64,000 nt of DNA, taken from assembly GCA_026770705.1 (NCBI GenBank), contig JANJGN010000926.1, positions 62,001-126,000 on the forward strand. Reading direction: 5' to 3'. Position 1 is the first letter of the stretch, and every line of letters starts with the position of its first letter. This DNA comes from Isurus oxyrinchus. Its lineage: Eukaryota. Below the pieces are notes generated by a model. The model was not told where the DNA came from. It ran no database searches and saw only the letters and a program-made list of their open reading frames with translations. The translations under genes were made by a program, and so were the position numbers. Positions 49,999 to 52,401 of the stretch are shown one piece after another.

Positions 49999-50367
49999 CA
50001 GAAACGTGAAGCTGGGTTACAGGGTAATAGTTATGGCTCGGACCATTGTCAAATTCTATTCTGAAAAAATAAGTTCCCGCATCTTCCCGTCTGATGTTGT
50101 TTATAATCAGGGAACAGTCGCCATCTTTCAGGTCTCCAGACAGCCGGGTCCGATGGTGGAACCGTGGTAACTCGTGACTGTGATCCTTGGAGTGAAAGGC
50201 AATGGGAGCCCAGGGAATCTGTTTCTCATTATTAAACCAGACTCCACCTCGCGGTTGGTTTTCCAGACACGATGGATAACTGTAATGACATGGAATCTGT
50301 ACACACGAACCTTCCTGAGCTGTCACCTCTCGTGGAGTGTCACCTTTCCACTCTTGTGAGGGTTCAG
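49999..50367 (-). CDS. Siglec-like A V-set exon 2 (essential Arg present)
   Basis: 369 nt, phase 1-1: GSCVQIPCHY...GDCSLII...DAGTYFFRIEF. Confidence 0.92.
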
Positions 50368-50399
50368 CTGGGGAGAGAAATCTCAATATTTATCTCTGG

Positions 50400-51300
50400 A
50401 TGGTTTGTGGATCTACTGAACCCGATATTTACAGATGAGGCTGAATTGGGGGGATGGTCAATACTGAGGAGGACTGCAACAAATTACAGGAAGATATACA
50501 TTCTGATGAAGAGTCATACGGACTCGAAACATTAACTCTGTCTTCCTCTCCACAGATACTTCAGACCTGCTGAGTTTTTCCTGCAATTTTTGTTTTAGTT
50601 ACAGATTTCCAGCATCTGGAGAATTTTGCTTTTACATTACAGAAAGATATTAATAAACTTGCAGAATGGGCAGGTCATTGACAAATGAGTTTCTGCGTTA
50701 ATAAATTTGAGGCATTACATTTTGTTCAGGAAAATGAGGAGCTTGTATCTTACCTCGAAAATAAGAATCTAATTGGGGTAGAGGAACAACGTGATCTGGG
50801 GCAGAAATACAGGAATCAGTAAACGTGGGGACACAGGTTAACAAGGGGATTAAACATACAAACTAAACACTCGAGATTATTTCTCCAGGGATTGAATTGA
50901 AAAGTAGAGAAGTGATGTGAAAGTTGTCCTGATCCTCGGTCTGTCTGCACCTGGAGTCACGAGTGCATGTTCTGGTCCCCATATTGTAAATAGGATATGG
51001 AGACACTGGAGAGGGTGGTAAAAAGCTTCACAAGGATGATCTCAGCAATGTGAGGCTTTACCTATCAGGAGAGGATGAACAGGCTGGGTCTCTGTTCTCT
51101 TGAACAGAGAAGGTTGAAGGGTGACCTCATTTGATCTTTGAAGTAATGAAAGGTTTTGATCGAGTAGACATGGAGAGAGTGTTTCCAAACCTCACAATGA
51201 ACAAAATTAGAAGCTGACAATATAACATCCTCACTAATAAATCCAATGGGGAATTCAGGAGAAACTTCTTTAACCAGAGAGTGGGGAGAATGTGTGCTTC
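50400..51300 (+). mobile_element. CR1 LINE RT fragment with a nested short Penelope-derived insertion (~50498-50635)
   Basis: CR1 RT 3' homology. Nested piece ctgatgaagagtcatacggactcgaaac...cagacctgctgagt flanked by a ~15-bp duplication attacag(g/a)aagatat. Confidence 0.75.
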
Positions 51301-52032
51301 AAGAATCACTTCATTGGCTGTGAATCAGTTTAGGATCGTCCTGAGGTGGTAAAAGGCGCTATGGAAATGTGAGACTTACTTTTGTATTTTGAAAGCAGGT
51401 TTTCAAGGATGAGATGGGAACTGAGAGGTAACAACAATCAGCAGCAACTTTCCTATTTTCAAACTTGGTGGGGAATGTGTCACTGAGCTGAATACACTTT
51501 CACTCCCAGACCCTTGAATTGCCAACACCGGGGTGTGGGTGATGGAGCAGTCCACAGCTCATGGAACCCTGGCTCATCATTCTCTCAGAGATCTGGGTCA
51601 CTGATCCCATTGCTCTCTGTGGGAGCTTCCTGTGTACAAACTCACTGCCACGTTAGACAGTGACTATACTTCAAGAATTTCTTCATTGTCTGTGAAGTGA
51701 TTTGGTACATGCTGAGGTGATGAAAGACGCTATAGGAATGCAAGTCTTTACTTTGTCGATTTGTCAGACTTTTAAACAGGATTAGAGAGACTGATGGGAG
51801 TGGATAACCTGATAGCATTGATGGACACAGTCAATACATTTAATCATTGATATTAAAGTGATTATTAGAGGTTGCTTTAAGACTGAACTGGAAGCAATCA
51901 CCAGGTTATTGAGAATCAGACAGTGTGTAAAAATAAGCTGTGTTTTGTGTTAATATGTAAACGTCACAGTTTGTGTTATTTCCCATTGAGTGTTGAATGT
52001 GAATTGTTGAGTAATTATAACACAGCACTTAC

Positions 52033-52401
52033 CAGAAATGTGAAGCTGGGTTTCAGGGTAATAGTTATGGCTCGGACCATTGTCAAATTCTATTCTGAAA
52101 TAATAAGGTCCTGCATCTTCCCGTCTGATGTTGTTTATAATCAGGGAACAGTCGCCATCTTTCAGGTCTCCAGACAGCCGGGTCCGATGGCGGAACCGTG
52201 GTAACTCGTGACTGTGATCCTTGGAGTGAAAGGCAATGGGAGCCCAGGGAATCTGTTTCTCATTATTAAACCAGACTCCACCTCGCGGTTGGTTTTCCAA
52301 ATGTGATGGATAACTGTAATGACATGGAATCTGTACACACGAGCTTTCATGAGCTGTCACCTCTCGTGGAGTGTCACCTTTCCACTCTTGTGACAGTCCA
52401 A
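52033..52401 (-). CDS. Siglec-like A V-set exon 1 (essential Arg present)
   Basis: 369 nt, phase 1-1: VGLSQEWKGDTP...SSCVQIPC...GDCSL...DAGPYYFRIEF. Confidence 0.92.

Follow-up and report, generated by a model that had tools for sequence, protein, structure and literature searches.

The window, by which we mean the whole 64-kb stretch of DNA that was analysed, contains on its minus strand a complete Siglec-like gene that runs from leader to stop (56029 to 35053). Its exons and the positions that matter for the argument are as follows.

55990..56029, minus strand: leader (signal peptide) exon of 40 nt with a phase-1 donor; it matches the leader of homologue P0001
52033..52401, minus strand: V1 exon, a first-type Siglec V-set domain that starts with VGLS and has Cys22, Cys27, Cys85, His34 and Arg103
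52337..52339, minus strand: V1 Cys22 codon, aligned with the first Cys of the MAG B-strand motif
52094..52096, minus strand: V1 essential Arg codon AGA, aligned to MAG, Siglec-5 and Siglec-7
51833..52466, minus strand: duplicated or converted block, copy 1 (the V1 exon, extended by about 65 nt on its upstream side and by 200 nt on its downstream side)
49999..50367, minus strand: V2 exon, an internal-type V-set domain that starts with AEPS and has Cys22, Cys27, Cys34, Cys85 and Arg103
50267..50269, minus strand: V2 Cys34 codon TGT (CAT in V1), in the BC loop at B-strand Cys+7, typical of internal V domains
50060..50062, minus strand: V2 essential Arg codon AGA, read from the sequence
49799..50432, minus strand: duplicated or converted block, copy 2, around V2 (634 bp, 94.3% identical to copy 1)
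49331..49627, minus strand: C2-set exon with three Cys (Pfam C2-set_2)
49544-49542, minus strand: C2 inter-domain Cys at B-strand Cys+6, aligned with the second Cys of the MAG Ig2 motif
39217..48720, minus strand: stalk of seven near-identical Ig exons of 282 nt, with 8-16 nt differences between intact copies
48720-48439, 47711-47430, 46713-46433 and 45399-45118, minus strand: stalk exons R1, R2, R3 and R4
41648-41367, 40588-40307 and 39498-39217, minus strand: stalk exons R5, R6 and R7
37715..37811, minus strand: transmembrane exon, a hydrophobic span without a charged residue
36755..36836, minus strand: first cytoplasmic exon
35053..35301, minus strand: last cytoplasmic exon, with an ITIM-like LFYANI and an ITSM-like TEYAQI followed by the stop

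AG/GT is found at every junction, and the extracellular exons are all of phase 1. The junction coordinates proposed in the earlier note (55990, 52033, 50367 and 49627) are all real splice sites. The layout is that of a type I membrane protein of the inhibitory Siglec type, with an Ig stalk and an ITIM/ITSM tail, and joining all exons except R3 gives a 1064-aa open frame that includes the transmembrane segment and both Tyr motifs. R3 is 1 nt short and would shift the frame if included, so the assembled allele may be defective. Because N gaps follow R1-R4, the length of the stalk may be misassembled; homologue models have 0-11 stalk Ig repeats. The stalk Ig exons sit in repeat units of about 1 kb, R4 has a third Cys, and a partial eighth copy near 38622-38735 (minus strand) lacks the 5' part. 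Two stalk repeats were checked for N-glycosylation sequons, and each has 3. Between R4 and R5 the stalk array also holds an inverted duplicate (42222-44533; 97% over 979 bp), which encodes a GIY-YIG-like C-terminus typical of Penelope-type retroelements.

Two intact V exons lie between the leader and the C2 exon, in place of the single V exon of the canonical architecture. Each is 369 nt long, flanked by AG/GT, of phase 1-1 and free of stops, and the Arg motifs read YYFRIE in V1 and YFFRIE in V2. The description of two tandem V-set domains that both retain the essential Arg is thus exact in its motifs and coordinates. No third V exon of this gene was found in the 64-kb window, and no N gap interrupts leader-V1-V2-C2 (none between 48421 and 60932). 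Both domains score above the Pfam V-set cut-off (E 1.3e-10 for V1, 2.5e-13 for V2) and also pass that of Ig_CD22, the first Ig domain of CD22. In a sequence search of the PDB with V1, the top 17 of 30 matches are Siglecs, with MAG and Siglec-5 tied as the best at about 55 bits; the matches to MAG, Siglec-5, -7, -10 and CD33 have E values of 4.5e-14 to 2e-13. Arg103 of both domains aligns with the F-strand ligand-binding Arg of MAG, Siglec-5 and Siglec-7. Cys27 and Cys85 of both align with the Siglec B/E-strand cysteines that form the intra-sheet disulfide, which is predicted here as well. The cysteines of the Siglec inter-domain disulfide, V Cys22 and the C2 cysteine at B-Cys+6, are present and align with MAG, and a bond between them is predicted. 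Between V1 and V2, 17 of the 369 nt and 11 residues are different, where the earlier note gave about 10 residues; 14 of the nucleotide differences fall in changed codons and 3 in synonymous codons.

Tandem V domains are widespread in related elasmobranch proteins. When longer proteins were searched with V1, 105 of 135 candidates matched, all 105 being named elasmobranch models drawn from 18 species; like all homologues considered here, they are predicted gene models from databases. Counting V domains per run, 74 of these models have one, 20 two, 6 three, 3 four, 1 five and 1 seven, so that 31 of the 105 models (isoforms included), from 12 species, carry 2-7 V domains in tandem. The species with several V domains include lamniforms, a squalomorph sawshark, cat and hound sharks, carpet sharks and two rays. 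V2 is 98% identical to V2 of Carcharodon P0021, and the C2 domain is 97% identical to those of P0013 and P0025. Given these identities, the two-V gene is a lamniform-shark Siglec-like gene. The same exon types and the same pattern of Cys34 recur in the elasmobranch RefSeq/UniRef clusters (Carcharodon P0021 and P0013; Cetorhinus P0001 and P0010). These entries are automatic annotations, and no functional study of them was found. Many elasmobranch models in RefSeq are automatically named Siglec-12, so the architecture is already implicit there.

The best evidence for tandem use, not cited in the earlier note, is a fourth cysteine in V2. V1 has Cys22, Cys27 and Cys85, and V2 has the same three and Cys34. 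Cys34 lies seven residues past the B-strand Cys of V2, in the same BC loop in which the C2 domain has its bonding partner at +6. For the family count we used 162 V domains, including the two of the window; 9 truncated domains were dropped, leaving 153 that could be scored. Of the 50 internal V domains, 39 have a cysteine at B-strand Cys+7; of the 103 first V domains, one has it. Both counts include isoforms and converted copies. After de-duplication the counts are 32 of 43 and 1 of 85. The sole exception among first domains begins with AEPS and comes from a model without a leader. Cys34 was found in 11 named species, the sawshark and two rays among them. At 36 of the 52 V-V junctions both linking cysteines are present. 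A domain with Cys34 occurs at least once in 28 of the 32 multi-V proteins.

Two tests on a tree bear on the association of Cys34 with position. With the cysteine column removed, a quick tree of V domains, in which 58 of 131 inner branches were left open and which was used for nearest neighbours and for the tests of Cys34 position and clade, requires 12 changes of this cysteine over its 131 rows. A single clade of Cys34 domains is rejected (p-AU 0.005), which indicates that Cys34 tracks position and not the rest of the domain. A phylogeny-corrected test is underpowered, since the tree offers only 6 independent pairs; on average 2.7 of them agree with the association and 0.0 go against it, which is not significant (median p 0.25). 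Three long-branch rows were left out of the independent-pairs and single-clade tests. Eleven of the 50 internal V domains do not have Cys34, and they include two two-V models with none (P0018, P0031). Three of the 11 are first-type exons (VGLS) in the seven-V model, and four are ray domains with another fourth Cys in the CC' loop. In the ray proteins P0011 and P0019, V2 and V4 carry this CC'-loop cysteine at about position 49, alternating with domains of the Cys34 type.

In MAG, the available text of PMC5150538 describes an inter-domain disulfide between V-domain C37 and C165 of Ig2, and in Siglec-6, according to the part of PMC10122656 consulted, mutating the equivalent pair of cysteines abolishes a binding activity. 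Cys34 sits at roughly the place of the C2 partner and does so in internal domains, which suggests that the V-C2 disulfide of Siglecs is probably repeated as a link between V domains. In an ordinary Siglec, the spare cysteine of V bonds the BC-loop cysteine of the C2 domain below it; in the shark protein, V2 would play the part of C2 for V1. V1 Cys22, the counterpart of the Siglec inter-domain cysteine, would then donate its bond to V2 Cys34, and V2 Cys22 would bond the C2 cysteine. The product would be a stiff head made up of V1, V2 and C2; a glycosylated stalk with about six Ig repeats would carry it, and the ITIM/ITSM tail would follow. This tail presumably recruits SHP phosphatases, as the accessible text of PMC13358205 describes for inhibitory Siglecs. 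From the sequence, we regard the use of V1 and V2 in tandem, joined by a Cys22-Cys34 disulfide, as reasonably probable.

Structure models are compatible with this arrangement. The V6-V7 pair of the basking shark, modelled with AlphaFold (pLDDT 85.6, pTM 0.67), matches the sialoadhesin V domain with an rmsd of 1.7 A (Z 18.2). The V-V model also spans the Ig1-Ig2 pairs of Siglec-10, CD33 and Siglec-5 over 201-209 residues at 5.0-6.3 A (Z 14.5-15.1). By molecule, Siglec-10 gives 5.0-5.2 A over 208-209 residues and CD33 and Siglec-5 give 6.1-6.3 A; MAG gives 8.6-8.9 A, and two-domain antibody and pIgR matches give 12-16 A. The superposition of the V-V model (5.0-8.9 A) is looser than that of a true V-C2 pair (3.4-6.1 A). 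The modelled head-to-tail arrangement thus appears roughly Siglec-like and would be compatible with the predicted disulfide. A first AlphaFold model, of V-V-C2 from P0010, had a pLDDT of 74.1 with the linker below 50, and its Foldseek search was uninformative on V-V geometry. Prediction of a complex with the basking-shark V domains as separate chains (score 0.03, mark 0.34) speaks neither for nor against the bond.

The near-identity of V1 and V2 had been attributed in the earlier note to recent duplication that included the flanking intron. A common block does exist, so intron sequence is shared, but it is limited to 634 bp of a V1-V2 period of 2034 bp. Elsewhere in the V1-V2 intron, comparison with the leader-V1 and V2-C2 introns gave no long match, the best pieces being about 40 nt. 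The two copies of the block differ at 36 sites in 612 ungapped bp; these differences are clustered (sum-of-squared-gaps p 0.0003), and the longest identical run is 108 (p 0.025).

The basking shark (Cetorhinus) supplies the informative comparison, since its model P0001 has upstream sequence and leader in common with the window locus and the same V-V-C2-Ig-Ig order, with V6-V7-C2-Ig-Ig at its end. At six sites (residues 1, 2, 18, 20, 34 and 101) the domains agree by position, window V1 with V6 and window V2 with V7. At 12 sites, mainly in the CC' and FG loops, window V1 and V2 agree with each other and with V7, and not with V6. Two sites group by species and the remainder are private. In the quick tree the nearest neighbour of window V1 is an internal-type domain. 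The six position-matched sites indicate that the near-identity of V1 and V2 is most likely due to gene conversion, and the simplest reading of the sequences is an old pair of first and internal exons that conversion has homogenised. Recent tandem duplication was dropped, since just 634 of 2034 bp can be aligned and the diagnostic sites track position across species; nor does the description as recent duplicates fit the occurrence of tandem V domains in 12 elasmobranch species. Unequal crossing-over or a collapsed assembly could yield part of the pattern. The first and internal exon types would both be old in elasmobranchs. Conversion would keep copying the ligand-facing loops between V exons, and the N-terminus and position 34 would stay position-specific. 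In primates, Siglec V exons are known to undergo gene conversion (PMC6288428). In most lamniform paralogues V1 and V2 are unlike in the CC' and FG loops, whereas in the window gene these loops are homogenised. P0001 is syntenic with window positions 56424-56565 and 55989-56141 and has 7 V domains against 2. Its V domains follow the pattern first, Cys, first, Cys, first, first, Cys, and the model appears to read through from the transmembrane segment and tail of an upstream gene.

A rival reading is that V1 and V2 serve as alternatives, with one V exon used per mRNA. Both exons are of phase 1-1 with similar acceptors, and every option of exon skipping stays in frame, so two isoforms with a single V domain each could be made, with Cys34 free or engaged in an inter-chain dimer. 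The three first-type internal V exons of the basking-shark model (VGLS, no Cys34) could be alternative first exons, and the cluster of this model holds 20 member sequences. Against this, V2-type heads that work alone should occur in single-V genes, yet an exon with Cys34 leads the protein in 1 of 103 cases, in the model without a leader. Since V1 and V2 have the same CC' and FG loops, using them as alternatives would also add little diversity. The start of V2 bears on the matter in one direction. AEPS would place Glu at -3 of the likely cleavage site, at odds with the usual signal-peptide rule, and it begins 15 internal V domains and one nominal first domain, from the model without a leader. 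VGLS begins 36 first domains and also 11 internal ones. The earlier proposal that VGLS completes a signal peptide and AEPS resembles a linker therefore stands for AEPS as a mark of internal position and fails for VGLS; AEPS as a complete marker of that position was dropped because of the 11 internal domains that begin with VGLS. The parity of cysteines gives a further argument. V1, V2 and C2 together have 3 + 4 + 3 = 10 cysteines, V1 and C2 have 6, and V2 and C2 have 7, so skipping of V1 is the only option that leaves one cysteine unpaired. An isoform that skips V2 would have an ordinary V-C2 head and is compatible with tandem use; an isoform that skips V1 is predicted to be disfavoured. A search for proteins shorter than 198 aa that span a V-V junction returned three, all of them database gene models. 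The earlier preference for tandem over alternative use is supported mainly by the position-linked cysteine (39/50 against 1/103) and by parity; as judged from the exons themselves, V1 and V2 are likely spliced in tandem, and exclusive use of one V exon per mRNA appears improbable. A different objection is that the second V exon is neutral or artefactual: it might be a recent copy, or the assembly might have duplicated a haplotype or collapsed a longer V array, and Cys34 would be chance CpG decay of an Arg codon. The N gaps that adjoin the repeated stalk exons and the seven V domains of the syntenic basking-shark model, against two here, leave room for a misassembled copy number, and residue 34 of first-type domains is mostly His (57) or Arg (13), both near Cys in codon space. 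Chance decay should strike first domains too, however, and 102 of 103 are without the cysteine. Leader-V1-V2-C2 is free of gaps, V1 and V2 agree at 6 sites with V6 and V7 of the basking shark, each with its positional counterpart, and tandem-V models occur in 12 species, several of them on contigs longer than 80 Mb. We consider this explanation very improbable. Neutral CpG decay as the sole cause of Cys34 was dropped on its position bias; it may be how Cys34 arose.

As to binding of sialic acid, 105 of the 110 first V domains have the essential Arg, as do 44 of the 52 internal ones. Its loss is commoner in internal domains (8 of 52, with 7 Lys and 1 Ser) than in first domains (5 of 110). V1 and V2 both have the A-strand Trp7, and at the position of the G-strand aromatic residue both have His. 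Among the 162 family domains this position is Tyr or Phe in 107 and His in 52; 32 of the His domains are internal (of 52) and 20 are first domains (of 110). The His in both domains and the commoner loss of the internal Arg are points against binding by both. It is possible that both V exons are included and linked while V1 alone binds and V2 serves as a spacer, its Arg surviving because conversion copies it from first-type exons. Conversion does homogenise the region of the Arg, internal domains lose the residue more often, and V1, which would rest against the loop end of V2, could shade the V2 site. In the portion of PMC7876704 consulted, chimpanzee Siglec-12 binds through its terminal V domain. 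On the other side, 44 of 52 internal domains keep the Arg, Lys replaces it in 7 of the 8 that do not, and in several paralogues the internal domain retains it even though the CC' loop of that domain differs from that of the paralogue's own V1. We give the spacer role of V2 a substantial chance, if one short of even. Since conversion can maintain the Arg without selection, the bivalent reading is plausible and no firmer; binding of sialic acid by V2 in addition to V1 is the least certain part of the explanation that we prefer, and on the sequence we would call it doubtful though well within reach.

Siglecs are generally presented in reviews as having one ligand-binding V-set domain, with Siglec-12 as the lone exception, and clustering is held to overcome their weak monovalent binding. 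The stalk of Siglec-12 is short, with two C2-set domains, in contrast to the one C2 domain and seven Ig repeats of the shark gene. The two share their two N-terminal V-set domains and a tail with Tyr motifs (primate Siglec-12 or Siglec-XII, gene SIGLEC12). The passages of PMC7876704 available to us describe Siglec-12 as the only Siglec with two V-set domains, in agreement with the exception cited previously, and state that neither V domain of human Siglec-XII has kept its Arg; the shark gene keeps both. Siglec-12 has two V domains against 2-7 in the shark family, and the tandem V domains of the two groups are likely of independent origin. The shark gene resembles MAG (Siglec-4), Siglec-5, -7, -10 and CD33 in its Arg, B/E-strand cysteines, inter-domain cysteines and V-C2 geometry (Z 15-18), and MAG and CD33 are among the top three PDB molecules for the shark C2 domain. 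MAG and the CD33-related Siglecs differ from it in having one V domain, an inter-domain disulfide from V to C2 only, and Tyr or Trp in place of His as the G-strand aromatic. In the literature searched, in which subscription journals are thinly covered and some texts were available in part, we found no description of multi-V shark Siglecs or of a V-V disulfide. The accessible part of the whale-shark genome paper mentions Siglecs once (PMC8455134), and a teleost study, in the text available, finds fish genomes to be without inhibitory CD33-related Siglecs (PMC7226832). The expanded, gene-converting, ITIM-bearing Siglec cluster of cartilaginous fish stands in contrast to that claim.

More broadly, and tentatively, sharks and rays may have evolved an extendable poly-V Siglec, in which an internal V exon set aside for this use acquired a BC-loop cysteine that imitates C2, the inter-domain disulfide can recur, and 2-7 Arg-bearing domains stack as a rigid rod. 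If so, a single chain could sense sialoglycans multivalently, with dual specificity in paralogues whose loops are unlike, valency would be set by exon copy number and splicing, and specificity would be reshuffled by gene conversion. A whole vertebrate lineage would then have several Arg-bearing V domains per Siglec chain, repeating the signature disulfide of the family, and would offer a natural design for multivalent Siglec probes. Shark V2 also bears on whether an internal V domain of a Siglec can bind ligand, including that of Siglec-12. Tandem V domains may recur in other vertebrates beyond the elasmobranchs: among 18 distant proteins with at least three V-like stretches, 5 (P0115, P0123, P0128, P0134 and P0137) have adjacent Siglec-like V domains, and the readable motifs in these five show no Cys at +7.

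Some neighbouring and related models deserve mention. The isoform model P0014 joins V-V straight to the transmembrane exon without C2, which would leave Cys22 of its second V domain unpaired. Tail exons of an upstream paralogue lie at 61284-61532 and about 62843-62924 (minus strand); 60 of 82 residues are identical to the last exon of the two-V gene. Its first Tyr motif is without the hydrophobic +3 residue and its second Tyr is replaced by Ser, so the paralogue is possibly a non-inhibitory partner. At 19311-19612 (minus strand) there is a V-set exon of another Siglec-like subfamily, 65% identical to residues 9-112 of P0032. It ends right at the position of the F-strand Arg, where retroelement-like sequence starts, and it is probably part of a disrupted gene.
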